Part shown: positions 6,613-51,321 of the stretch, one piece after another | Layout of the letters: the number at the start of each line of letters is the position of its first letter | Position numbering within the stretch: position 1 is the stretch's first letter | Source of the DNA: an uncultured Acidimicrobiia bacterium | GTDB lineage: Bacteria; Acidobacteriota; Terriglobia; Versatilivoradales; Versatilivoraceae | Direction: 5' to 3' | Assembly (NCBI GenBank): GCA_963786955.1 | Contig: CAWBAT010000004.1 | Coordinates: 32,001-96,000, forward strand | DNA length: 64,000 nucleotides | Made by a program: the position numbers and the translations under genes | Notes under the pieces: generated by a model | What the model was told of the DNA's origin: nothing | The model's database searches: none | What the model saw: the letters and a program-made list of their open reading frames with translations, nothing else

Positions 6613-7479
6613 TCAAGGCCGCGATCTCGAGGAGCCCGCCAAAAGATTCTCTCGGAGAAAAGCCAGGCCTTGCCGGGCTAAAGTATCCGGAGAGTCAGAC
6701 AAAGGTCGCCATAAACGAGCCAGGGGAGCCAATCGGCCTTCAGGGTTGAAGGACTCGATCACCACGTAACCCTTGTATCGGATCTTCTGGAGCGCGCTGG
6801 CCACTTGGCCCCAGGGGACATGCCCCTCTCCGGGAATCCCCCGGTGGCTGTCTGAGCCATGCAGGTGAAAGAGCTTGTCCCCTGCCAAATTGATGGCACC
6901 GGCAATATCTTCTTCTTCAATGTTCATATGAAAACTGTCCAGATGGATGCCAACGAATGGGGATTGAACCAGCTCGATTAGCTCGCGAGCCTGCTTTGCT
7001 GTGTTGATCAAATTGTTTTCGTAACGGTTGAGCACTTCCACCCCCAAACGGACTCCGACTTTAGCGGCATATTGGCCCAATTGATCCAGCCCTTCAGCAG
7101 CTCTTTGAATGCTCGCCTGCCACTGGCTGGCAGATAGTCCTTTCTCTCCGCCTACTCCCGCCACGGATCCGGAAAAAATTGAAGCCCCTGCTTCTGCGCA
7201 GATGTCCAAGCCTCGCTTGGCATATTCCAAAGCACGGCTCCGACTCTTGGCATCCTCACTGGAGAGGTCACGCTCAGAACTAAACAAGCCGATGATGGAA
7301 CAGCCCAGTTCATAATTTGCGAGCTCTCTACGAAGCGCATGAGTGTCAATAGTGGCGTCATCTTCGAATCCAAATTCGATGACCGATCCTCCCAGCGACT
7401 TCACCTTCGCAAGCAAAGGCAAATCTCGCGCCGTGCTGAAGGGAGATGTCCAGACCCAAAGATTGATGCCAATTTTCAT
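6613..7479 (-). CDS. Sugar phosphate isomerase/epimerase (D-tagatose/psicose 3-epimerase-like TIM barrel)
   Basis: EVLNRYE, HLDSFHMNIEE, H..DSHRGIPGEG, IESF motifs. Confidence 0.88.
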   Translation of the reverse strand: MKIGINLWVWTSPFSTARDLPLLAKVKSLGGSVIEFGFEDDATIDTHALRRELANYELGCSIIGLFSSERDLSSEDAKSRSRALEYAKRGLDICAEAGASIFSGSVAGVGGEKGLSASQWQASIQRAAEGLDQLGQYAAKVGVRLGVEVLNRYENNLINTAKQARELIELVQSPFVGIHLDSFHMNIEEEDIAGAINLAGDKLFHLHGSDSHRGIPGEGHVPWGQVASALQKIRYKGYVVIESFNPEGRLAPLARLWRPLSDSPDTLARQGLAFLRENLLAGSSRSRP

Positions 7480-7596
7480 ATTGCTCTACCCACCTCACGA
7501 CAAATGAGAGAACCGGAATAATTAAAATGCAGGGGAGCGGGGGATATCAAACCTTGTCCTAATTTGCAAAAGTCCGTGTTGTAGCTATTCCCGCTG

Positions 7597-7629
7597 TTTA
7601 GGCCCGGGGTCAACGACCCCGGCTACAAC
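7597..7629. repeat. GTAG-type REP-like palindrome
   Basis: CCGGGGTC-AAC-GACCCCGG-CTACAAC; related sequences near 1237, 8740 and 12331. Confidence 0.65.
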
Positions 7630-7679
7630 ACTTACCGCGAATTTGTGCAACTTAACCCTAGTTTGGGCTGTTAGAGGAT

Positions 7680-8642
7680 CTATTCAAACCAGAGTTTGGT
7701 GGAAGGTTTTTCGAGCATCACCTTTCGGAGCAGACCGACTGCTAATTCAAATCCTTCCTCGGAACCAATCAATGGGTCTTCATGTTCAATGGAGAGTACG
7801 TCATCGTAACCGATGAGCCTAAGCGTGCTCACAAACGATCGCCAAAACTCTTCGGCATGACCAAAACCAGCCGTCCGGAAGACCCAACTCCGGTTCTGTT
7901 TGTCTTGAAAGGATTTTGAGTCGAGAATTCCATTGATGCGGACCACATGTTCATCTAACCGGCTGTCCTTGGCATGAACGTGATAGATCGCGTCGCCCAG
8001 GAACCGAATCACTTCAATGATGTCGATGCCTTGCCAAAATAAATGAGAGGGATCCAAGTTGCATCCCACCACAGGACCCACGGCATTCCTGAGTCGCAGC
8101 AAGGCTTCCGGTTTGTAAACCATATCGACAGGATGCATCTCGAAACACAAACGGATGCCATGATCTTGGGCGATCTGTCCGTGCTCCTTCCAATAAGGAA
8201 TAAGCCGTTTCTCCCATTGCCATTCAAACATTTCCAGATTCCGCGGAGGATAGGGATACAAGATCCAGTTGGGCACTTGGTCTCCTGGGGCTGCTTCCGG
8301 AAGGCCAGAAAGTAATGTGAGACGCCTCACCCCAAGCTTCTCAGCCAAACGGCAAGTATCTCGGAATTCCTGATCATATCCCTTGGCGATCAGAGGATCT
8401 GGATGAAGCGGTTCACCGTGCATGGCCAAGGCACTGATCGTGAGTCCAAACTCCGCCAGAGTCTCTTGGAATTTCTTGAACTTTGATGGATCTGAAAGTA
8501 ACTCGGCCGGGTCGCAATGGTTCTTTGGAAAGAAGCCCCCCGTACCGATCTCGATCGCCTTTAGCCCCAATTTGTGCATCCGCTCGGCTGCTTCACGAAG
8601 GGATAAGTGCACAAATACGGTAGTGATGGCTCCTAAATGCAT
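7680..8642 (-). CDS. Sugar phosphate isomerase/epimerase (AP_endonuc_2/IolI-like)
   Basis: FEMHP, NLDPSHLFWQG, HVHAKD, LSIEHED motifs. Confidence 0.88.
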   Translation of the reverse strand: MHLGAITTVFVHLSLREAAERMHKLGLKAIEIGTGGFFPKNHCDPAELLSDPSKFKKFQETLAEFGLTISALAMHGEPLHPDPLIAKGYDQEFRDTCRLAEKLGVRRLTLLSGLPEAAPGDQVPNWILYPYPPRNLEMFEWQWEKRLIPYWKEHGQIAQDHGIRLCFEMHPVDMVYKPEALLRLRNAVGPVVGCNLDPSHLFWQGIDIIEVIRFLGDAIYHVHAKDSRLDEHVVRINGILDSKSFQDKQNRSWVFRTAGFGHAEEFWRSFVSTLRLIGYDDVLSIEHEDPLIGSEEGFELAVGLLRKVMLEKPSTKLWFE

Positions 8643-8795
8643 TCATCTCCCTCCGATTGGAATTACAGTGACCTAGTTGGGATTGGCGCCGTGTGGGGTT
8701 GAGGCTTTAGAAAGCCTCAATGGCCTACAAAATTGTTGGCTGGGTCACCGACCCGGCGTTAACTTCACCGTATTTATGAAAAGCAGTACTAAATC

Positions 8796-9873
8796 TCACG
8801 AATGGCTTGGGATCTTGGAACCGCCAACCCACTTTACTCCGACAGATTCTGCATTGAGGCAAATTTGTTCCCAGGTTTTTGGATCGATCGGAATTCCATG
8901 GGCGCTCCGCTCTTTCAACAGGCGAAAGTCTAATTCTCCAGGCAGCACGACTTCTTTATGGTTAGGTGCCACAGGAGAAGATTTAAGGTGATCTCTCAGC
9001 TCTTTGGTGAGCCCATCAAATTCTTGACGAGAAAGGAATGCCGAAACATTGACCACAATGAAACAGATCCCGTTCCCCGGCTGGGGGACAGTCGTCCTGG
9101 TACCAGCCAAAAGCCCTGCCAGGACCTCCATCAAGATCCCAAGCGCAAACCCTCGGTACCCCAAGTCCCCTCCAAAGGGCAAAATACCGCCTCTGGGGGG
9201 GCCATAAAAATCAGCCGGATCGTTGCTGGGGTTGCCTTTTGCGTCAACAATCCAGCCGTTAGGCAATAGTTTCTTTTGGTTTAGATACAGCCTGATCTTC
9301 CCTTCCGGAGCCTGGGAAGTCGAAAAATCGGCCAAGATAGGAGCGTCCGATCCACAAGGAATAGCAAAAGAAATCGGGTTTGTAGAGAGACGTCCTTCGC
9401 GTCCTCCCCAGGGGAGAACAAAATGCCCGTCTCCGGGCGGGGAGTTACATGCCGCAATGGCAATAAAGCCCTGCTCTGCTGCCGCTTGAGTGTAAGCGCC
9501 CAGTCGACCCACGTGACTACAGCGCCGGGTCACGACAGTTGCCGTGTTGTGGTTGCGTGCTTTATCGACCGCACATTGTACTGCTCTCAAGGCCCCCACT
9601 TGGCCATAATTCCAGCCGCAGTCCAGGATTGCGGTTGTCTCCGTTTCGTTGCTCAAGCGAATGGGTGCGCCCGGGATCGATTCTTCCATCCCGGACTTCT
9701 GGCACATACTGACAAATTCGAATGATTCCATGCGAATCGTAACCCATCAGGTTTGCCTTAACCAGATGGTCCGCGATCATCACGGCTTCATCCTGCGGCG
9801 CTCCGCATCCGACGAAGACTCTTGCTGCAAATTCTTTCAGGTCTTGAGCTACAAAGTTCAGGGTTTCAGGCAT
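8796..9873 (-). pseudogene. Ldh_2 family (malate/L-sulfolactate/2,3-diketogulonate-type) oxidoreductase with a single frameshift at about 9670-9675 (real or sequencing error)
   Basis: The N-terminal frame (GYDSHG..DGRIDPG) and C-terminal frame (PGAPI..SHVGRLG..LSTNP..LPGE) join into one protein if one base is removed from GATCCCGGGCGCA. Confidence 0.85.
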
Positions 9874-38284: not shown

Positions 38285-38568
38285 AAGCACATTTGACACA
38301 TATTTCTATTTTGCTCGGTTTGGAGTAAGTTAGGGAATAAGCTTCGAGTCTCTCCGTGAGTGTCGGCCTAAACACGGGGGCATGAGGGGGCTGGGGTGTC
38401 TGTAACCGCAGTAGGGTTAATGGGGCTACAGATATCCTTTAAGGGAATCTGCTACTTTTAGCTAATCATTCGCTTAGAGTTTTTCCCATGTCGAGAATAA
38501 AAGAATTAGCAGCGGAGTACGAAGCCTTGCAAAAGGCCGGGTTGGTCATCCAACTCAAGAGGAAGAAG

Positions 38569-41500
38569 ATGTCGGTGCGACTCTTCAATCTCTTCTTGTT
38601 CTCTTCTTTTCTTATTTTTGTCATGGGCCAAGGAGTCCAAGCGAATCCGACGCCAGAGAAGGATTCGACCGACCTTTCGCATGCTTCGAGTACGGCTTCA
38701 GCCGATGCGGTGATGATTCAGATCGCTACATTGGTTAAGCGCGGCCTTTTGAACGAAGCTGAAGCTCAGCTTGAACAGCTTTATGCGGAAAACCTCGATT
38801 CACCTTCTATCCATCTACTGAGAGCAGACGTGTTAACCAAACTTGGCCGGCCAGCCGAGGCCAGAAAAGCTCTCGAAATCGCTTACAAGTTTACTCCCGA
38901 CAATGTGGAGGTCTTAAAAAGAGTAGCGGCTAGTCGCGACGCTTATGCGTATCAAGCGGCGGTAGTTTATGAGGAGCTAGCAAAGAAACTCGAAAATGAG
39001 CATGCCTCCCCATCCGACGTCCATGAAGCATTGGATCGCGGTATGGTGGTCGCTATCAGGGATGGAGAGTCGGCGATGGCATTGCGTCTTTCTGAAAAAC
39101 TGCGTGCACATGGTCGCCCTGTCATCTTGCAATCGCCTCCAAATCAGGATTCCAGTTCCGCTGACATGCTTGAGATTCCGGGAGGGATTAAGGCTTTGGC
39201 ACGGATGACAGGAATGCAAGATCCCAAGAAAGCCGACACTTTTCTTACTCAATACGCGGAACGACTGGTCCGGTTGCATGACAAGGCCGATTATTCCGAG
39301 TCGTTACAGACATTTCGAAGTTTGCATGAATATTTCAAGATCGTCATCGAACTGCAGTCTCTGACGGCCAGCAGCAATAAAGGTCTGGAAGTCTTCCTCG
39401 ATTCCCATGATAAACCCGCTCAGGAGCGTAGCGAAAGGATACTCTTCTTATTGGGATGGCAGATTAAGAGACAGGGCACACGTCGGGTGGTGGAACAAGA
39501 TGATCGGCAGCTCCTAGCGTACCGCAAGAAAGTTGCCGAGGCGCTGGGCGTCAACGGAGATGAGTTGAAAGCCGCTCTGGAATCAGGAAAGCCATTCACT
39601 GTGAACGTGCATTCCGAACAAGTGCCTGTCCAAATTAGTAACAACTATTGGATAAACGGACTCTTGAATGGAACTCGCATACGAGGAGGTTTGGCGGAAG
39701 CTTTTCTGGATACATTACCGGTAGCGTATCTTTATGTCGCTCTCAGCAAACTCAGCAAAGAAACGCAGATTCAAATTACACAAGCGCTTAACCCGAAGAC
39801 ATTGCTCAAAGAGCATTGGAGAACCCTCTATCTTTATGGAGGGGCTTTGAATATTGACAACACTCAAGTAGAAACCCCTGGGGGGGGGCAGGCTGCGGAA
39901 GCATGGGAACATTTGGTCGGTGCTGACCGCCGTAAAATAAGCTCCTTCCTGAATGCGCTCCTTTCGAAGGATGCCGGCAGACTCATGGCCTTCTATTATG
40001 TTATGGCTGGACTTCCCTCGGTGAACCAGCAGTTTTTCACTCGAAGCCCGCGACAGCTGGAAACTTTCTATAGGGCCTTTGCCTCACCGGGAAAGGGTTT
40101 ACATGGTGCCGATACTTTTTTGCGCAGAAACACGGTCTTTTATGACGTGGCACGCGAAATGCCGTTGAATGACGGTGGGGCTGTCCAGTTTCCAGGTGGC
40201 AGCAGCGTCTGGAAAATGCGCCGGTCGGATGCGAAGAAATCTGAAACGGTTCCAATCCCGAGCGAGATGAGAAGCCCTGAGGAGAAAAATGCCGATTCGC
40301 CCGTAAATGTTGCCACACTCAAGAAGACAGAGGAAAGTAAGGCCAGCCCTTTCCCTTCCGCTGATTCATTGAAGAGAGTCGATGTCCAGGAAAGTAGTCC
40401 AATCCCATCGGTTGATACGCTCGAGAAAGAGGATAAGAAGGAAAACAGCTCTTCAGCATCGGTGGATTCGCTGGAGAAAGAGGATGAGAAGGGAAGCACT
40501 CCTTCCCCATCCGTTGATTCGCTGAAAGAAGTCAGCACCCCGGGAAGTAATTCTTCCCCCTCAGTGAATCGGCTGAAGAAATTCGATGAAAATGAAAGGG
40601 ATCCGTTCCCCTCCATCAATAAACTAAAGAAAGTCGAAATACAGGAAAGCATTTCTGTTAAGCCCATTAATTCGTTGAAGAAAACATTCGTAAAAGAAAG
40701 CACGCCCTCCCCCGTTGTCGATTCGATGAAGAAAGTCGATGTACCAGTAAGTAATCTTTTTCCGGCCGTTGATTCGTTAAAAAAAGTCGATGAGAGGGAG
40801 AGCCCTCCTCTGCCTGTCACTCGTATACGGAAGGACGGGGAAGGACAACAGGAATCAGAGACAAAAATACTTACCGAAATGTTTTCTACCCGGGATGAAA
40901 CCGGTATACAGACTCCCACTCGCCTCGAAGCATTCCTGAGCGTTGTTCGCCTGGAAAAGCACTGGGGCCATAAACTGGATGAGTCATCGGTTTCTTTATT
41001 GTTAGAGAACTATATCGATCATAGGGAAATTTTTCCTTATCTGGCCTCTTTGCCACCGCTTGGGACCCATCAACTACAGGAATTCTTTCAGGCGGTCAGG
41101 AATCTGGATTCCTTAAAGAGTTCAGAGCTTGCCCTCATTGTGGGTGACTTCCAATGCTTCCTGAAACTTCTCTCTCTGCTTTATGAAAATGGAGCTGTTC
41201 AAGAAAGCCAGGCTTCCTTGCTCCTGGAGAATCTTTGTCAGCGGTTTGCCACAGCCACAACCAATACCGAATTCGCCCGGTCGAGCTTCCTGGTCCTGGA
41301 AGGTCTAAAGAGGATTCTCCAATCTGCTCCCGCAGCGATAGAGAATGAAAAATCACCCATCCCTCCGTCGGCAGATGGCACTCGCCCGGGCCTGAGTACT
41401 CCGGCTGAAACGACGAATCATACCTTCGATGAGTTACTCTTTGAAGCCTTGGCTGGCGTATCGAATATCACTCGGGTCCAACTCGATGGATCAGAAATTG

Positions 41501-42828
41501 AGATTGATCTGCCAGGGTGGAAGAAGGGGCGGATGCAGGAAGTGATGGCCCTGCAAGCGATCCCTCTAACCGATCCACTTTTGAAAATTTTCCAGTGCCT
41601 GGAGGCCTTGGCCAATGAAAACCAGGATCCCACAACCCTTTTGCAATCCGTGGATAACCTGGTAAGTAATTTGCGCGACGTGGATCCGACCATTTGGGAA
41701 TCAGTCCCCAAGAATTTTCAACAAAATATGATCCAGACGCATCGGGAGAAAGTCCTCCTCTCCCTCAGCGCCCTCAAAGTCTCGATCGGAAGAGGAGTAT
41801 CCCCCAACGAATGGGCAAATCTGGCAGGCAAAGTAATGCAAGAGTTACATCCCGATCTCCATATTTCTCTCTTAGGCTGGATCTACGCCTATCACTTCTC
41901 TCCCAACGATCTACTGATCAAAGAAGACCCTCTTTTTATTCGCCGGCATCGATTTCTGGCAAGTGCTTCGACTGGAAAATCAATCTGGCATGATACCGAT
42001 ATCGATTCCCTTGACCCTGATGCTGGAAGTTACCTTCGCGGAGGAGTGGCTCAAATCGCTGCTCCGGCGGGGGAGATCGGGCTCGTGTCGGATCAGACCG
42101 GGGAGGGCGTGGGCAGAGACCAAAGAGGCGCTAAACTGGCGGCCGCCCAGCTCGCGGCATTACGTGCAATTCCCTGGAGGAAATGGAATGGCCGGCAGTT
42201 ACATGATTTCTGTTCAAAAGTCCGCCTGGGAAAAGAACTCTTGGCCGAGGCCTCTTTAGATCCTGAGATTCTTACTAGGATATCCGATGACTTGCGGGTT
42301 CTGGTTGGCCCAATACGTTGTCGAATTCTCCTCCAAGGGTTGCCCGGATCGACATCTTTTGACTTAGCAGGTCTATTGAGTTCCGAGGAACTCTTTGAGT
42401 TGGCGGACGGTTACTGGAGGAAGAAGGGCCCGGCCGGATGGAGGAAAAGCCCTCTTGCCGACCAGTTAGCGCGGGAGAGAATCCTTCAGACCTCAGAATC
42501 CATTACCTGGATAGGGGGATATTACCCGCAGTCTTACGGATGTGGCCACGCGCACTTGTTCCCCCTCGGCCCTTACGAAGAATATGAGAACGTGAAAAAT
42601 CCCGAGCTCATATCTGAGCGACTCAGCCATGTCCTTTTAGACCTCGCTGAGAAAATTGATCGCCTGGGCTTGCCTTTGGAATTATTGCCGCTGCTGGCTG
42701 AGCCTGCCGTGAGACAGTTGGCCATAACGAAGGGGATGAGTGATTGGAGTGATTGGCAATCGGCTCTCGAAGGGCTTCGGGAATTGCGACTTGAACCGCT
42801 GATCTCTCACCTGCAAGAAAATCCATGA
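38569..42828 (+). CDS. Large exported hypothetical protein with N-terminal TPR-like helices and an internal 17-aa repeat array
   Basis: Signal peptide MSVRLFNLFL..VQA after AGAGGA (the frame opens at 38488); TPR-like LLRADVLTKLGRPAEARKALE; stop overlaps the VWA start. Confidence 0.8.
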   Translation: MSVRLFNLFLFSSFLIFVMGQGVQANPTPEKDSTDLSHASSTASADAVMIQIATLVKRGLLNEAEAQLEQLYAENLDSPSIHLLRADVLTKLGRPAEARKALEIAYKFTPDNVEVLKRVAASRDAYAYQAAVVYEELAKKLENEHASPSDVHEALDRGMVVAIRDGESAMALRLSEKLRAHGRPVILQSPPNQDSSSADMLEIPGGIKALARMTGMQDPKKADTFLTQYAERLVRLHDKADYSESLQTFRSLHEYFKIVIELQSLTASSNKGLEVFLDSHDKPAQERSERILFLLGWQIKRQGTRRVVEQDDRQLLAYRKKVAEALGVNGDELKAALESGKPFTVNVHSEQVPVQISNNYWINGLLNGTRIRGGLAEAFLDTLPVAYLYVALSKLSKETQIQITQALNPKTLLKEHWRTLYLYGGALNIDNTQVETPGGGQAAEAWEHLVGADRRKISSFLNALLSKDAGRLMAFYYVMAGLPSVNQQFFTRSPRQLETFYRAFASPGKGLHGADTFLRRNTVFYDVAREMPLNDGGAVQFPGGSSVWKMRRSDAKKSETVPIPSEMRSPEEKNADSPVNVATLKKTEESKASPFPSADSLKRVDVQESSPIPSVDTLEKEDKKENSSSASVDSLEKEDEKGSTPSPSVDSLKEVSTPGSNSSPSVNRLKKFDENERDPFPSINKLKKVEIQESISVKPINSLKKTFVKESTPSPVVDSMKKVDVPVSNLFPAVDSLKKVDERESPPLPVTRIRKDGEGQQESETKILTEMFSTRDETGIQTPTRLEAFLSVVRLEKHWGHKLDESSVSLLLENYIDHREIFPYLASLPPLGTHQLQEFFQAVRNLDSLKSSELALIVGDFQCFLKLLSLLYENGAVQESQASLLLENLCQRFATATTNTEFARSSFLVLEGLKRILQSAPAAIENEKSPIPPSADGTRPGLSTPAETTNHTFDELLFEALAGVSNITRVQLDGSEIEIDLPGWKKGRMQEVMALQAIPLTDPLLKIFQCLEALANENQDPTTLLQSVDNLVSNLRDVDPTIWESVPKNFQQNMIQTHREKVLLSLSALKVSIGRGVSPNEWANLAGKVMQELHPDLHISLLGWIYAYHFSPNDLLIKEDPLFIRRHRFLASASTGKSIWHDTDIDSLDPDAGSYLRGGVAQIAAPAGEIGLVSDQTGEGVGRDQRGAKLAAAQLAALRAIPWRKWNGRQLHDFCSKVRLGKELLAEASLDPEILTRISDDLRVLVGPIRCRILLQGLPGSTSFDLAGLLSSEELFELADGYWRKKGPAGWRKSPLADQLARERILQTSESITWIGGYYPQSYGCGHAHLFPLGPYEEYENVKNPELISERLSHVLLDLAEKIDRLGLPLELLPLLAEPAVRQLAITKGMSDWSDWQSALEGLRELRLEPLISHLQENP
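40303..40830 (+). repeat. About 10 degenerate 51-bp (17-aa) tandem coding repeats
   Basis: PSADSLKRVDVQESSPI / PSVDTLEKEDKKENSSS / ASVDSLEKEDEKGSTPS..; unit starts at 40354 and 40405 are 51 bp apart. Confidence 0.85.
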
Positions 42829-46905: not shown

Positions 46906-47519
46906 AAAAAACATTATTCATTCTGTCCTTTTGTTTGCTCCTCGGTCTGGGGATATGGGTTGCCTTGTTTCTGCACTCGGGAGCCTCCGGAACCTCAGCG
47001 ATTCCGAGTCAGGCGGCCGCCAATTCGTTTTCCAAGAAGCTCTCCTTATTGACTAGCGAGAAGACAAAGCCTGTCTCACGCACTCTCGAATTTAGCCAGA
47101 CTGAACTGGATGGCTATCTTTTTCACCAGGTCACTCCTCTCTTTCCCAAGGGACTCCAAGACGTGAGAATCCAGCTCTTAGACGGATCTCTCGTGGCAAA
47201 CTCAAAAATCAATTTTGATGAATATGAGAAATCAACCGCGGGAGCGAAAAACTCTCTATTGAGTGCCTTATTGAGCGGAGAGCACACTCTCGATGTTTTC
47301 GCAGAATTTAAGTCCGAAAACCGGAATGGATCCTATGAAATTTCCAAGGTCTTGCTGGACCAGAAAGAGATCCCCAAACCTCTCGTTGACATTCTCATCC
47401 AGAAGTATGTTGTCCCCAAATACCCCGCGGCCAAGCCGAACAGTCCTTTCCCGCTCCCCTACCGAATTGAAAAAATGGACATTTTGCGCGGGAAACTCGT
47501 TGTCCACCAAACGCCCTAA
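46902..47519 (+). CDS. Membrane-anchored hypothetical protein
   Basis: N-terminal TM segment; ATGA overlap with the lepB stop. Confidence 0.78.
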   Translation: MKKTLFILSFCLLLGLGIWVALFLHSGASGTSAIPSQAAANSFSKKLSLLTSEKTKPVSRTLEFSQTELDGYLFHQVTPLFPKGLQDVRIQLLDGSLVANSKINFDEYEKSTAGAKNSLLSALLSGEHTLDVFAEFKSENRNGSYEISKVLLDQKEIPKPLVDILIQKYVVPKYPAAKPNSPFPLPYRIEKMDILRGKLVVHQTP

Positions 47520-47623
47520 CACTTGCACTCAAGTTAGGTCGCAGAAGAATAGACTATTTGAGATCTTGTCTTAAAGCATGAATCACTTTTATACCAAGTC
47601 GCATTCAAACGGTGACAGTCTGA

Positions 47624-47775
47624 ATTCCCCTCCGCTGAAGGGAAGGTGTGAAGGGGGGGTCGTCAGTGACGAAAAGCGGGCAAAATGCCCCTGCTCCCAG
47701 TGTTAATCATACCCACCCCTGAGAGCTAATGACGAGTGAAGGCTTCTCAATCCTTCACTCCCCTCCCGAGGGGAC
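47624..47775. repeat. CCCCTCC..AGGG hairpin repeat region
   Basis: ATTCCCCTCCGCTGAAGGGAAGGTGTGAA matches the reverse complement of the copy near 27531; CCCCTCCCGAGGGG near 47760. Confidence 0.6.
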
Positions 47776-47840
47776 TTGTTTCGATCTTCAAGGAAATCTT
47801 CCTGTGCCGAAAAAATTCCCAGGGAAAAGCCGGAAACATC

Positions 47841-49067
47841 ATGAGCGATAAGACCATTGTCGTCTTGGCAACGTTGGACACCAAAGGGACTGAAGCCCGT
47901 TATGTCTGCGAACAAATTGAGCAGACGGGAAACAAAGCCTTGCTTATAGACACCAGCGTGGTCGGAATTCCAGCGACCCGGCCCGACATCACTCGCGAAG
48001 AAGTGGCTGCGGCTGGTGGATTGGAACTACACAAGATTCTAGAAAATCCGACCCGGGAATTAGCCTCGCCCATTATGGCTCAGGGAGCAACTCGGATTGT
48101 CGTGGATCTGGTCACCAAGGGGCAGGTGCATGGAGTGATATCGCTCGGTGGCACTCAAGGCACCACTCTGAGCACGAAGGTCATGCGGGCATTACCGTAT
48201 GGTTTCCCTAAGGTGATGGTCTCGACGATCGCCTCTGGAAACGTTGCTCCCTGGGTCGATATCAAAGACATTACCATGATGTTCTCCGTCACAGACATTC
48301 TCGGCCTCAATGTGGTCACCCGGAAGATTCTGGCCAATGCCGCCGCAGCAGTCAGTGGAATGGCAAACACCGATGTCGAAATTAAGCATGGCGCCAAACC
48401 CTTAGTCGCCGTCACTACGGTGGGGATTACAACACGGGGCGCGATGAAAGCAGTCGAAACGTTGGAACACGCGGGATACGACACAATCGTGTTTCATGCG
48501 ATCGGCCCTGGCGGGCGAGCCATGGAACAGATGATGCGGGAAGGACTGATCAGTGCGGTGCTGGACTACTCGACGATCGAGGTCTCGAACGAAATGTTTC
48601 ATGCCCTGCTCGCGGGTGGGCCGGACCGCCTGACGACCGCCGGCAAGCTGGGGCTGCCGCAAGTCATCTGCCCCGGCGCAATTGAGGTCCTGGTCTTTAA
48701 TGAACCCGAGACGGTTCCCTCCAAATACAAGAGTCGCACACTCATTCGCCACAGCCCACAGATTACCGATGTTCGGTTAGAAAAAGAAGAGATGGTGGAA
48801 GTAGGCAAAGAGATCGTCCGACGTCTCCAACATACCAAAGGTAAGGCCGTTTTCTTGATCCCCTCATTAGGTTTTGATAGTTACTCGGTGAAAGGTCAGA
48901 GCTTCTATGATCCCGAAGCAGACGCCGCATTCGTGGCCGAACTAAAGAAAGGCTTGTCCCCTAATATTAAGATCGTCGAGCTTAATGCCGCAATCGATGA
49001 CCCCGTCTTCGCAACCGAAGCAGCCCGCATGCTGATTGCGTTGATGGAATCACGAACTCACTCATAG
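47841..49067 (+). CDS. UPF0261 / Tm-1-like ATP-binding domain protein
   Basis: ATLDTKGTE, LGGTQGT, PKVMVST, FHAIGPGG motifs. Confidence 0.9.
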   Translation: MSDKTIVVLATLDTKGTEARYVCEQIEQTGNKALLIDTSVVGIPATRPDITREEVAAAGGLELHKILENPTRELASPIMAQGATRIVVDLVTKGQVHGVISLGGTQGTTLSTKVMRALPYGFPKVMVSTIASGNVAPWVDIKDITMMFSVTDILGLNVVTRKILANAAAAVSGMANTDVEIKHGAKPLVAVTTVGITTRGAMKAVETLEHAGYDTIVFHAIGPGGRAMEQMMREGLISAVLDYSTIEVSNEMFHALLAGGPDRLTTAGKLGLPQVICPGAIEVLVFNEPETVPSKYKSRTLIRHSPQITDVRLEKEEMVEVGKEIVRRLQHTKGKAVFLIPSLGFDSYSVKGQSFYDPEADAAFVAELKKGLSPNIKIVELNAAIDDPVFATEAARMLIALMESRTHS

Positions 49068-49076
49068 GAGAGAAGC

Positions 49077-49940
49077 ATGGCACAACGCTACACACGCCAG
49101 GAATTCCTCGATCGCCTTTGGCTAGAAATCAGGAGTGGCAGGCCGTTGGTGATGACTGGCGCCGGAAACGGGATTGCCGCGAAATTCATTGAACGAGGAG
49201 GAGTTGATATCTTGGGGGTCTACAACACAGGGTACTTCCGGATGCAAGGCTACGGTTCACTGGCGGGTATGCTCCCCATGGCGGACGCCAACGAACTGGT
49301 TTTTCAGATGGGCAGGAGAGAAATTCTTCCCCAGGTCAAAGAAGTTCCCGTCATCGCAGGAGTCAACGGCGTCGACGTTTTGCGCGATATGCGACTCTTC
49401 CTGGAAGATTGCAAACGGATCGGGTTTTCGGGAGTGCATAATTTCCCGACCGTCGCCTGGTTTGACGGAGAATTCCGCAAGACTCTGGAAGGGACCGGCT
49501 TGGGTTATCAACTGGAGATTGACATGCTGAATATCGCGCACAAACTCGACTTGCTCACGATCGGTTACGCCTTTTGTGAGGAGGATAGCGAAAAACTGAT
49601 GCGCGAGGCCGCTCCGGATATTTTTATCTATCATGCCGGAATCACACGGGGAGGGGCAACCGGATACGGAGAGGGACAGTCCCTGGCAGACACGGCGACC
49701 CGCAGCCAGATTCATTATGATATCGCCAAGAAAATCAAATCGAATGTGATCCTGTTGGCGCATGGTGCCGCTCTGACGAATCCGGAAGATGCTCAATTCA
49801 TGTTGGATCACACAGATTGTCACGGAGTACAGCTGGGATCGAGCATTGAGCGATTGGCGATCGAGCAGCCACTCGAAGAACGCGCCAGATCTTTTAAGGG
49901 GGCTCATTTTAGGCAAAGCGGCAAACCGCGATCACGCTGA
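49077..49940 (+). CDS. Phosphoenolpyruvate hydrolase-like TIM-barrel protein (Tm-1 C-terminal domain homolog)
   Basis: YNTGYFRMQGYGSLAGMLP, AGVNGVD, HNFPTV, SSIERL. Confidence 0.9.
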   Translation: MAQRYTRQEFLDRLWLEIRSGRPLVMTGAGNGIAAKFIERGGVDILGVYNTGYFRMQGYGSLAGMLPMADANELVFQMGRREILPQVKEVPVIAGVNGVDVLRDMRLFLEDCKRIGFSGVHNFPTVAWFDGEFRKTLEGTGLGYQLEIDMLNIAHKLDLLTIGYAFCEEDSEKLMREAAPDIFIYHAGITRGGATGYGEGQSLADTATRSQIHYDIAKKIKSNVILLAHGAALTNPEDAQFMLDHTDCHGVQLGSSIERLAIEQPLEERARSFKGAHFRQSGKPRSR

Positions 49941-50050
49941 GGTCGCTATCCCGCTGTTCAGCGCGTTTTTTATAGGTTTCAAGGCTTCAGCTTATCAGGA
50001 AGGCTGTATGCCCCGTTGAGAGCCTTGTGCTGGAGAACTAAGGAAGAACT

Positions 50051-50950
50051 ATGCCACTGGTTTCATTTCAGGACTTAATGAGAGAGGCTGAGTCCGGCAA
50101 CTATGCTGTGGGTTATTTTGAGAGCTGGAATCTGGAATCTCTCCTGGCTGTTGCCGACGCAGCTACCCGGATGCGCTCCCCGGTCATCCTGGGATTCAGT
50201 GGAATTCACCTCCCCGATATTGAGCGAGGAGATGACGATCGGCTCCGTATGTATGCCGCGCTGGGGAGCGAGTTATGCCGGCAACTTCCGGTTGCGGCCT
50301 GCCTGCTCTTCAATGAATCTCCACATTACGAATGGGTCATGAAAGCCATTGAGGTTGGATTCGGCCTCGTGATGTTCACCGATGAAAATCTCGCGGCGGC
50401 GGACCTACGGGATAAGGTACGCCAGGTGGTAGAAAAGGCTCACACCACTGGCGTCGCGGTTGAAGGTGAGATGATGTCTCTGGCTGGCGTTAATGGCCAA
50501 CTGGCTGTCCTCCCGGAAGACCTCCGCTTGACCGACCCCAGCCTCGCTCAATCATTTATAGAAGACACCGGTATTGATGCCCTCGCTGTCAATATTGGAC
50601 AGGCTCATGTCCACGGGCGACGCGAGTTACCCCTGAATTTATCGAGACTCACCGAGATCCGGCAAACCGTTTCTGTCCCGTTAGTCCTGCACGGAGCAAC
50701 TTCCATTGACCGAGGGTATCTTCAACAAGCCATCCAATTGGGCATTCGGAAGATTAATGTCGGAAGTATCCTCAAGAGAACATTCTTTGACACGGTTCGC
50801 AACCGCTCGTCGAAGGTTGGCATGGACTATAATCCCTACGATGTTGTGGGGTCAGGGCTCGATACCGATGTTCTGGCCGCAGGACGAGACGCAGTCCGGA
50901 AAGCAGTGGAAAATCTGATGGGTTTGTTTGGCAGCGCGGGAAAAGGCTGA
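50051..50950 (+). CDS. Class II fructose/tagatose-bisphosphate aldolase-like protein (atypical)
   Basis: YAVGYF, VEGE, TGIDALAVNIGQAH, PLVLHGA, KINVG. Confidence 0.85.
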   Translation: MPLVSFQDLMREAESGNYAVGYFESWNLESLLAVADAATRMRSPVILGFSGIHLPDIERGDDDRLRMYAALGSELCRQLPVAACLLFNESPHYEWVMKAIEVGFGLVMFTDENLAAADLRDKVRQVVEKAHTTGVAVEGEMMSLAGVNGQLAVLPEDLRLTDPSLAQSFIEDTGIDALAVNIGQAHVHGRRELPLNLSRLTEIRQTVSVPLVLHGATSIDRGYLQQAIQLGIRKINVGSILKRTFFDTVRNRSSKVGMDYNPYDVVGSGLDTDVLAAGRDAVRKAVENLMGLFGSAGKG

Positions 50951-50970
50951 TTCGGTGGAACACGTCCGTG

Positions 50971-51025
50971 GGGTGGCGAAGACATGCGCACTGTGCATGT
51001 CTTCACATTGAATGCAGGCTTTGAG
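50971..51025. repeat. 55-bp hairpin-containing direct repeat, copy 1
   Basis: GAAGACATGC..GCATGTCTTC stem; 48/55 identical to 51843-51897 by hand alignment. Confidence 0.8.
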
Positions 51026-51321
51026 GAAGTTCTTTCGATTCGACGAGGGATCTGACTTTTTCCGGGCTGGCGCAGACATACGTTGTTAGCATGTCTGCGA
51101 AGAAATAGAGGAATACACGCACACGCATCTGGTCAAGTGACTGTTGATCGAAGACCTCAAAACGTGGAGATGGCCAGCCTTGACACAGGGGTCATACGCA
51201 GACCTGGCAACGTCGCAAATCTGTGCCACTTGAGGCCTAGATACCCGATCCTTAATTTTAGTTTTCACTACAATTGTCTATTTAATTTACCTACCCCGGG
51301 CTTCGCTTTAGGAGATCCGTT

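Follow-up and report, generated by a model that had tools for sequence, protein, structure and literature searches.

What do the bacterial counterparts of the two halves of tomato Tm-1 do, and why should an aldolase-like gene follow them? The question is raised by three genes in a 64,000-nucleotide stretch of contig CAWBAT010000004.1 (the window), which encode a UPF0261 protein, a TIM-barrel protein and a class-II-aldolase-fold protein of a subfamily that we call FNE after its Phe-Asn-Glu motif. We regard it as the probable, though by no means assured, reading that this trio forms the core of a catabolic cassette which is horizontally mobile and serves the breakdown of a sugar-like compound, probably a keto-sugar; its chemistry and substrate class are what we infer below. 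The genes are the following:

47841..49067, + strand: UPF0261 protein (Tm-1 N-terminal type), 408 amino acids; PF06792 and PF23189
49077..49940, + strand: PEP_hydrolase-like TIM barrel (Tm-1 C-terminal type, 'TBST'), 287 amino acids; PF09370
50051..50950, + strand: class-II-aldolase-fold protein, 'FNE' subfamily, 299 amino acids; PF01116

The calls of open reading frames (ORFs) and the Pfam matches confirmed the three same-strand genes of a first-pass annotation, and the hidden Markov model search that it had recommended against UPF0261 and PEP_hydrolase matched PF06792, PF23189 and PF09370 alike. The longest ORF for UPF0261 opens at GTG 47736, while homology begins at ATG 47841 and all 35 aligned relatives begin at the equivalent position; the longer start was therefore dropped and the start given before was correct. 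The UPF0261 stop codon (49065-49067), overlapped by an AGGAG, is separated by 9 nucleotides from a new ATG at 49077, giving two separate polypeptides, unlike the fused Tm-1. UPF0261 is encoded separately in all 35 relatives as well.

A non-canonical aldolase-fold protein and its neighbours

The third protein matched PF01116 (E 1e-51, 176 bits against a Pfam cut-off of 25.5) and fell below the cut-off of all 18 NCBIfam models that it matched, the best score being 175.8 bits against 423. Its structural model (predicted local distance difference test, pLDDT, 83.7) superposed on the class II aldolases 8Q5A, 2FJK and 1GVF with template-modelling (TM) scores of 0.8-0.9. In the HMMER alignments to 2FJK and 3Q94, Asn88-Glu89 occupies the Asp-His position of these enzymes and in the alignment to 1GVF Leu86-Phe87 falls there, Asp-His being absent in every register. 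The corresponding residues of AgaY are Asp82-His83, which we take to be the catalytic Asp and the adjacent zinc-ligand His. Additionally, Glu24 stands for the Asn of the conserved class II aldolase 'Phe-Asn' motif. His186 and His214, aligned with the two remaining metal histidines, are retained, as are Asn236, 'LHGATS' and the Val-Glu-Gly-Glu strand, and residues F87, N88, E89, E24, E138, E140, H186, H214 and N236 are invariant in 14 orthologues.

Judged by these alignments, the third protein is a distinct subfamily in which Phe-Asn-Glu replaces the Asp-His pair of class II aldolases. Since it is without the residues that define these enzymes, the aldolase name is unproven; of the earlier label 'atypical aldolase' the adjective holds, given the replacement seen against 1GVF, 2FJK and 3Q94, and the noun does not yet. 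FNE is an unannotated subfamily with members in 272 species, currently named 'class II fructose-bisphosphate aldolase', an annotation that is probably wrong. The protein atlas offered only generic clusters of that name. A search of the plasmid collection with the third protein returned 61 records, none of which reached 60% identity (best 34.6%) or belonged to the FNE type, their annotations being canonical fructose-bisphosphate aldolase or KbaY; neither there nor among the 80 loci described next did we identify a cultured host.

To place the gene in context, one genome per species was scanned with the alignment of the 14 orthologues. A relative was found in the 272 species and the best 80 loci were kept, all of which carry titles of metagenome-assembled genomes; the phylum labels given below are those record titles, and some are apparently unreliable, 'Acidimicrobiia' for instance being given to loci with 88-93% identity to the window. 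F-N-E was present in 80 of the 80 loci, a count that is partly circular because one of the two search patterns required it, and E138, E140, H186, H214 and N236 in 75 (four of the others are truncated and one is divergent). Within 6 kb of the FNE gene we found the barrel in 51 of the 80 loci, UPF0261 in 44, both in 43 and either in 52, these totals including 16 loci with short upstream flanks. When only the 64 loci with at least 3.3 kb upstream were considered, 38 had both genes, six the barrel only, one UPF0261 only and 19 neither. The pair-linked loci are labelled Acidobacteriota, Chloroflexota, Planctomycetota, Spirochaetota, Alphaproteobacteria, Hydrogenedentota, Gemmatimonadota and Actinomycetota. 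The adjacency of the trio is far beyond chance, because the barrel occurs in only 28 of 301 genomes of the window's phylum, yet it lies directly upstream of the FNE gene and on the same strand in 46 of the 80 loci.

Closer to the window, an FNE orthologue was found in four of 40 relatives of its genome (5/41 genomes when its own is included), and the pair lies directly upstream in all four (L002, L003, L005 and L006). Three of these, L003, L005 and L006, are titled 'uncultured Acidimicrobiia bacterium'; their cassette is 62-93% identical at the protein level to the window's Acidobacteriota-type one, and they coincide with genomes listed in the window's own genus or family. Their Acidimicrobiia titles are probably wrong.

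The reverse search, starting from the pair, covered the 301 genomes of the phylum sample. PF09370 was found in 28 of them (27 above cut-off) and PF06792 in 32, a tally that includes one genome flagged as unpublished (G086). The FNE profile at E <= 1e-40 matched two, the window's own genome and, weakly (148 bits), one that has no barrel. In 28 of the 29 full-length barrel loci UPF0261 lies within 3 kb on the same contig, and the exception is on a short contig. An FNE gene is missing from 28 of these 29 loci, and an aldolase link as a general property of the pair was therefore rejected.

Three types of UPF0261/barrel pair can be told apart by Pfam score and gene order. In a tree of 36 barrels the 28 aldolase-linked ones form one group with 94/94 support (not starred by the tool), and two aldolase-linked Actinomycetota barrels, from L068 and L081, nest in another type and show a different order, with the aldolase gene first, then the barrel and then UPF0261. 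The grouping, together with the single aldolase-linked locus among the 29 of the phylum, indicates that the aldolase link is specific to one clade of the pair. Members of different phyla mingle on short branches, a pattern suggestive of horizontal transfer. The supposition that the aldolase is conserved beside the pair is thus borne out in 52 of the 80 loci, under eight phylum labels, and has to be narrowed to one clade plus the two Actinomycetota loci, with 1/29 barrel loci in the phylum sample. Of the two kinds of neighbour that the first-pass annotation had proposed to compare, aldolases and defence genes, the former lies within 6 kb of the pair in those 52 loci, and of the latter none was found among the nine neighbours scanned.

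The other two pair types, seen in other Acidobacteriota (L085-L098), repeatedly adjoin large DUF7133 proteins, which include cupredoxin, HEAT or cytochrome c parts, and ThuA-like and 3-keto-disaccharide-hydrolase-like genes also recur beside them; these neighbours hint at oxidised (keto) sugars as a theme common to the pair. In one locus, L089:8340-10913 (G227), the UPF0261 gene is split by an insertion, in which a 301-amino-acid ORF faintly matches the domain of an IS1 transposase.

Around the FNE gene of the relatives the commonest extended order is regulator, xylose-isomerase-like barrel, UPF0261, barrel, optionally a formyltransferase-like gene, the aldolase-like gene and then E2 / E1 alpha / E1 beta. 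The regulators are of the SorC, DeoR, ROK and GntR families and sugar ABC transporters also occur. The E2 / E1 alpha / E1 beta genes, a set like those of pyruvate/acetoin dehydrogenases, come immediately downstream; E1 beta was found in 43 of the 80 loci, or in 35 of the 58 with at least 3.6 kb downstream. Bryobacterales loci have instead a lipoyl-E1 alpha fusion, E1 beta and an alpha/beta hydrolase. The E1/E2 models scored below the NCBIfam cut-offs except for E1 beta, a subfamily-level hit. The formyltransferase-like gene (PF00551 and PF02911) stands between the barrel and the aldolase-like gene in 28 of the 80 loci (within L009-L016, L025-L033 and L062-L080), and in L015, the only copy to be translated, the motif Asn-x-His-x-Ser-Leu-Leu-Pro is intact. 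In five loci the cassette is preceded by a RuBisCO-like protein, which in two of them occupies the place of UPF0261.

The loci that carry no pair have sugar-type neighbours of another kind. L034 has a lyxose isomerase, a PfkB kinase and a URO-D-like gene; L042, L049 and L055 have a fucose-isomerase-like gene, an FGGY kinase and a URO-D-like gene; L073 has a GH38 mannosidase, and L041, L046, L047 and L060 have sugar ABC transporters. URO-D-like genes were also seen in L053 and L073, and L078 has an MTHFR gene (7166-8820). PfkB or FGGY kinases were found in none of the 52 pair loci vs four of the 28 pair-less ones, and those four also carry the lyxose- or fucose-isomerase-like genes. The restriction of these kinases to loci without the pair, consistent although the numbers are small, suggests that the pair takes the place of the kinase.

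The Tm-1-type pair

UPF0261 matched PF06792 (E 6e-59, 199 bits) and PF23189 (E 3e-70, 236 bits), each against a cut-off of 27, and it falls in the NCBIfam subfamily NF002674 (472 bits against 335). Its nearest solved structures are MarK (9MPY, E 3e-58) and Tm-1 (3WRY, E 3e-50). According to the MarK report (PMC12624787, JBC 2025), this enzyme phosphorylates acetovanillone and related phenols, converting ATP to ADP, and represents the first catalytic activity of UPF0261; a change of E16 to K raised its activity about 1600-fold, Lys16 corresponds to the ATP-contacting Lys20 of Tm-1, and His219 hydrogen-bonds the phenolic oxygen. The same report describes MarK as a stand-alone homodimer from an operon with the carboxylase and phosphatase genes AcvCDEF, and the term 'TIM barrel' is absent from its text.

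Indexing the pocket positions against the residues named in that report, we found that Asp13-Thr14-Lys15 of the window protein aligns with Asp14-Thr15-Lys16 of MarK, Lys15 thereby matching K16 of MarK and K20 of Tm-1; the window protein natively carries the Lys that MarK gained only by mutation. Gly195, His219 and His304 are retained and the pocket differs by Thr196Ile, Phe283Val, Ile285Val and His348Tyr. D13, K15, H219 and H304 are invariant in 36 UPF0261 sequences that cover the three pair types. From these residues, UPF0261 is probably an ATP-dependent small-molecule kinase. The statement that the bacterial function is unresolved is thus partly out of date since the MarK activity of 2025, and it still describes the paired form, for which no physiological role is known.

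The barrel matched PF09370 PEP_hydrolase (E 1e-89, 300 bits against a cut-off of 33.8) and PDB entry 2P10, Mll9387 (E 4e-74). Its AlphaFold model, built from 36 sequences (pLDDT 88.7), superposed on 2P10 with TM 0.88-0.95 and 43% identity in the structural alignment. In the next tier of Foldseek matches, members of the PEP mutase / isocitrate lyase superfamily (TM about 0.5-0.6, 10-16% identity) were interspersed with TIM barrels of no relation, and this likeness is too weak to place the barrel in that superfamily. Co-folding of UPF0261 with the barrel gave a score of 0.00, informative neither way.

The two proteins indeed correspond to the two halves of Tm-1, as the Pfam domains and the 3WRY match (E 3e-50) confirm. 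The split arrangement as such is no discovery: Yang 2016 (PMC5028733) showed that bacteria, archaea and fungi as a rule encode UPF0261 and the barrel by separate genes, which co-evolve. COG5564 and COG5441 are mentioned in PMC8963296. Our literature search, to which subscription journals were largely closed, found no paper giving a function to the paired UPF0261/barrel form or to the Asn-Glu aldolase type. What is already known, then, is the split pair, and the kinase idea has a precedent in MarK; what we did not find described is the multi-phylum coupling of one pair clade to a non-canonical aldolase-fold subfamily and its link to lipoyl E1/E2.

The locus in its own genome

In the window the trio is flanked by RNase III, a signal peptidase, an unassigned 205-amino-acid ORF and small membrane ORFs; the annotated neighbours comprise RNase III, the signal peptidase, proteins without assignment and an AI-2E transporter. 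The two closest relatives likewise have no regulator, transporter, isomerase or E1/E2 beside the trio. Two non-coding intervals bear on its transcription:

47520..47840, + strand: intergenic region of 321 nucleotides, presumed promoter region, between the 205-amino-acid ORF (ending at 47519) and ATG 47841
49941..50050, + strand: barrel-to-aldolase spacer of 110 nucleotides, with a short GC stem, a T6 run and then the ribosome-binding site AAGGAAG (direct reading)

Consensus scans called three promoter-like and six terminator-like sites, no more than in shuffled sequences. No promoter-like site on the + strand was called by the consensus scan in 47520..47840, and the stem and T6 run of 49941..50050 were not called by the terminator scan. 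Four metatranscriptome runs contain parts of the stretch and their contigs cover parts of each trio gene; those of run X1, 95-99% alike, cover parts of all three genes, a weak signal in which DNA carry-over is possible. No contig of these four RNA libraries, for which there was no silent control stretch, spans any gene junction by at least 31 nucleotides. Just past the stop of the third gene, at 50961-51065, the contigs of two runs carry a different 24-31 nucleotides in place of 103; the downstream spacer varies at the level of strains.

Elsewhere in the genome, contig C5:459001-478000 (L082) holds a second PF01116 paralogue of the Asn-Glu type (40% identity, 'LNES', with Glu24 kept). Clustered with it are a divergent RpiR regulator, a lyxose-isomerase-like gene, a GH38 alpha-mannosidase, a zinc alcohol dehydrogenase, an RraA-like gene, E2 / E1 alpha / E1 beta and a PfkB kinase. 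On contig C3:256001-272000 (L083) a RuBisCO-like gene was recovered in two tblastn pieces, a possible frameshift, next to the C-terminal fragment of an FGGY gene, xylose-isomerase-like and URO-D-like genes and an RpiR regulator, perhaps a sister cluster in decay. No canonical Asp-His PF01116 gene was found in the genome, both of its PF01116 copies being of the Asn-Glu type. A DeoC/class I-type gene lies at C2:133275-134075 and, by its family, could be the glycolytic aldolase; the search of the genome for PF00274 class I aldolases was uninformative, as control genomes were also unmatched.

Away from the trio, window positions 38488-42828 hold a 1446-amino-acid ORF whose translation has central degenerate Ser-x-Asp-Ser-Leu-Lys/Glu-Lys repeats, followed by a 291-amino-acid ORF and a 513-amino-acid TPR protein.

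A candidate route, its rivals and known systems

How could the three proteins act together? In the catabolic cassette that we favour, UPF0261 and its TIM-barrel partner would first phosphorylate a hydroxyl of the substrate with ATP, taking the role that PfkB or FGGY kinases have in the sister clusters, a step proposed because of one characterised relative (MarK) and the gene displacement. The phosphorylated ketose would then pass to the aldolase-fold metalloenzyme and form a metal-stabilised enediolate. The conservation of the phosphate-binding residues and of two metal histidines, with the third His changed to Glu, Asp to Asn and a new Glu24, points to an enediolate handled by a remodelled acid/base set. 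The change of Asp to Asn on one strand and of Asn to Glu on another looks like a relocated carboxylate, and C-C cleavage with a relocated base is on this ground slightly more likely than dehydration or isomerisation. Finally, the product might be converted to an acyl-CoA by the acetoin/pyruvate-dehydrogenase-type E1 alpha/beta-E2, which is seen next to the trio only in relatives.

The phosphosugar pathway with a kinase-like UPF0261 that the first-pass annotation had envisaged gains from the sugar-type neighbours, the MarK precedent and the PfkB/FGGY displacement, and loses in generality as the aldolase link is limited to a clade. Several observations weigh against the cassette. Nineteen of the 64 well-flanked FNE loci are without the pair; three of five searched genomes with a pair-less FNE gene have no PF09370 anywhere (one of these genomes is only 1.3 Mb), and the other two have a different barrel type elsewhere. 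In the phylum sample the FNE gene stands beside one barrel locus out of 29, that of the window. The displacement argument comes from four loci only, and the scheme does not account for the formyltransferase-like, URO-D-like and MTHFR genes that relatives have nearby. The sole assayed UPF0261 enzyme, MarK, is a stand-alone phenol kinase outside the cassette clade, a homodimer acting on phenols from which the window protein differs in four pocket residues. The modelled likeness of the barrel beyond 2P10 is generic and we assign it no role. Lastly, no isomerase, regulator, transporter or E1/E2 adjoins the trio in the window, a related E1/E2 set being found at the second locus of the genome, and the 110-nucleotide spacer with its T-run makes the co-transcription of the third gene less than certain.

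A variant to which we allow a small but real chance makes the Asn-Glu 'aldolase' a ketose-phosphate dehydratase or another enolising enzyme, the loss of the retro-aldol Asp diverting the enediolate to elimination and yielding a diketo-phosphate. MtnB is a dehydratase within the other class II aldolase fold. UPF0261 and the barrel (or the RuBisCO-like protein in some relatives) and E1/E2 would then convert the diketo-phosphate to acyl-CoA, possibly with a one-carbon unit set free, to be handled by the formyltransferase-like, URO-D-like or MTHFR neighbours. If this holds, sugar would reach acyl-CoA by a route not described before, and the Tm-1-type pair would have its first physiological role.

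It is improbable that UPF0261 is a MarK-type aromatic (phenol) kinase in the catabolism of aromatics or lignin monomers, with the aldolase-like protein acting on a ring-cleavage product. MarK is the closest solved structure and the ATP-site Lys, His219, which in MarK contacts the phenolic oxygen, and His304 are conserved; however, His348Tyr, Thr196Ile, Phe283Val and Ile285Val alter the pocket, no AcvCDEF-type carboxylase or phosphatase was seen among the annotated neighbours in the window or the 80 loci, regulators and neighbours are sugar-type, and the MarK operon, as described in PMC12624787, has no barrel partner.

We find it very unlikely that the third gene encodes a housekeeping fructose-bisphosphate aldolase of glycolysis or gluconeogenesis and that its position is meaningless. 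It is a PF01116 protein with a class II aldolase fold in a genome that has no canonical Asp-His gene of this family, but every member has other residues for the catalytic Asp and one zinc His, the score lies under all matched NCBIfam aldolase cut-offs, the orthologue is too patchy (5/41 genomes), the synteny with the pair extends across eight phylum labels and the DeoC/class I-type gene at C2:133275-134075 is a candidate for that function.

Hardly credible, finally, is an anti-phage or antiviral module akin to tomato Tm-1, held before as a lesser alternative: it has in its favour the Tm-1 homology and an intergenic single-nucleotide polymorphism that lies next to a gene for a 'Tm-1-like protein' in Cutibacterium acnes mutants resistant to phage (PMC12733950, one table; not evidence of function), but PADLOC returned 0 families for each of the three proteins and, for nine neighbours, only weak matches to one response regulator's receiver domain, the neighbours are RNase III, a signal peptidase and membrane proteins in the window and sugar enzymes in relatives, and the co-evolution of the pair in bacteria, archaea and fungi (PMC5028733) has the look of a metabolic unit.

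Returning to the catabolic cassette, its interest lies in that UPF0261 and PF09370 co-occur in bacteria, archaea, fungi and, as Tm-1, plants, and that one clade of the pair is now tied to an unusual aldolase-fold partner and in most phyla also to a lipoyl E1/E2 set. These partners narrow the substrate to a ketose-phosphate-like compound.

How does it compare with known systems? Mll9387 of Mesorhizobium loti (2P10, 'putative phosphonopyruvate hydrolase') belongs to the same family as the barrel, and as a structural-genomics entry without a demonstrated function it says nothing on the chemistry of the barrel. Tomato Tm-1 and the plant Tm-1-like proteins combine an N-terminal UPF0261 part with a TIM-barrel part at the C terminus, and these correspond to the two window proteins; the plant halves are fused, whereas separate genes, 9 nucleotides apart in the window, are the usual state outside plants, and the known activity of Tm-1 is viral replicase binding, not catalysis. 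MarK (Saro_1862 of Novosphingobium aromaticivorans) shares with the window protein the two-domain UPF0261 fold, the ATP-site Asp-Thr-Lys, Gly195, His219 and His304. It differs in being a stand-alone homodimer with phenol substrates in an acetovanillone carboxylase operon, while the window protein has a TIM barrel as its partner, four changed pocket residues and sugar-type surroundings.

The third protein resembles the class II ketose-bisphosphate aldolases AgaY (1GVF), Thermus fructose-bisphosphate aldolase (2FJK/1RV8) and SqiA (8Q5A), a sulfofructose-phosphate aldolase, in its fold (TM 0.8-0.9), in two metal-histidine positions, in the Val-Glu-x-Glu strand and in the His-Gly-x-Ser and Asn-Val-x-Ser/Thr motifs of the phosphate site. 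In contrast to them it has Asn-Glu for Asp-His, Glu24 for the Asn of 'Phe-Asn' and scores below every curated cut-off. As for the downstream set, acetoin dehydrogenase AcoA/AcoB/AcoC presumably offers the closest comparison: E1 alpha, E1 beta and E2, or the lipoyl-E1 alpha fusion with an alpha/beta hydrolase, follow the aldolase-like gene in relatives, although not beside the window's trio.

Lastly, the isomerase-kinase-aldolase operons for fucose, rhamnose and 5-deoxyribose are matched by the FNE sister clusters, with their lyxose- or fucose-isomerase-like genes and PfkB or FGGY kinases. The trio departs from them in that UPF0261 and the barrel stand in the kinase slot and that a non-canonical 'aldolase' follows, often with E1/E2 after it. 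Compared in this way, the cassette would be a sugar kinase/aldolase-type operon assembled from unassigned families, and would offer an experimental route to the function of Tm-1-type proteins.

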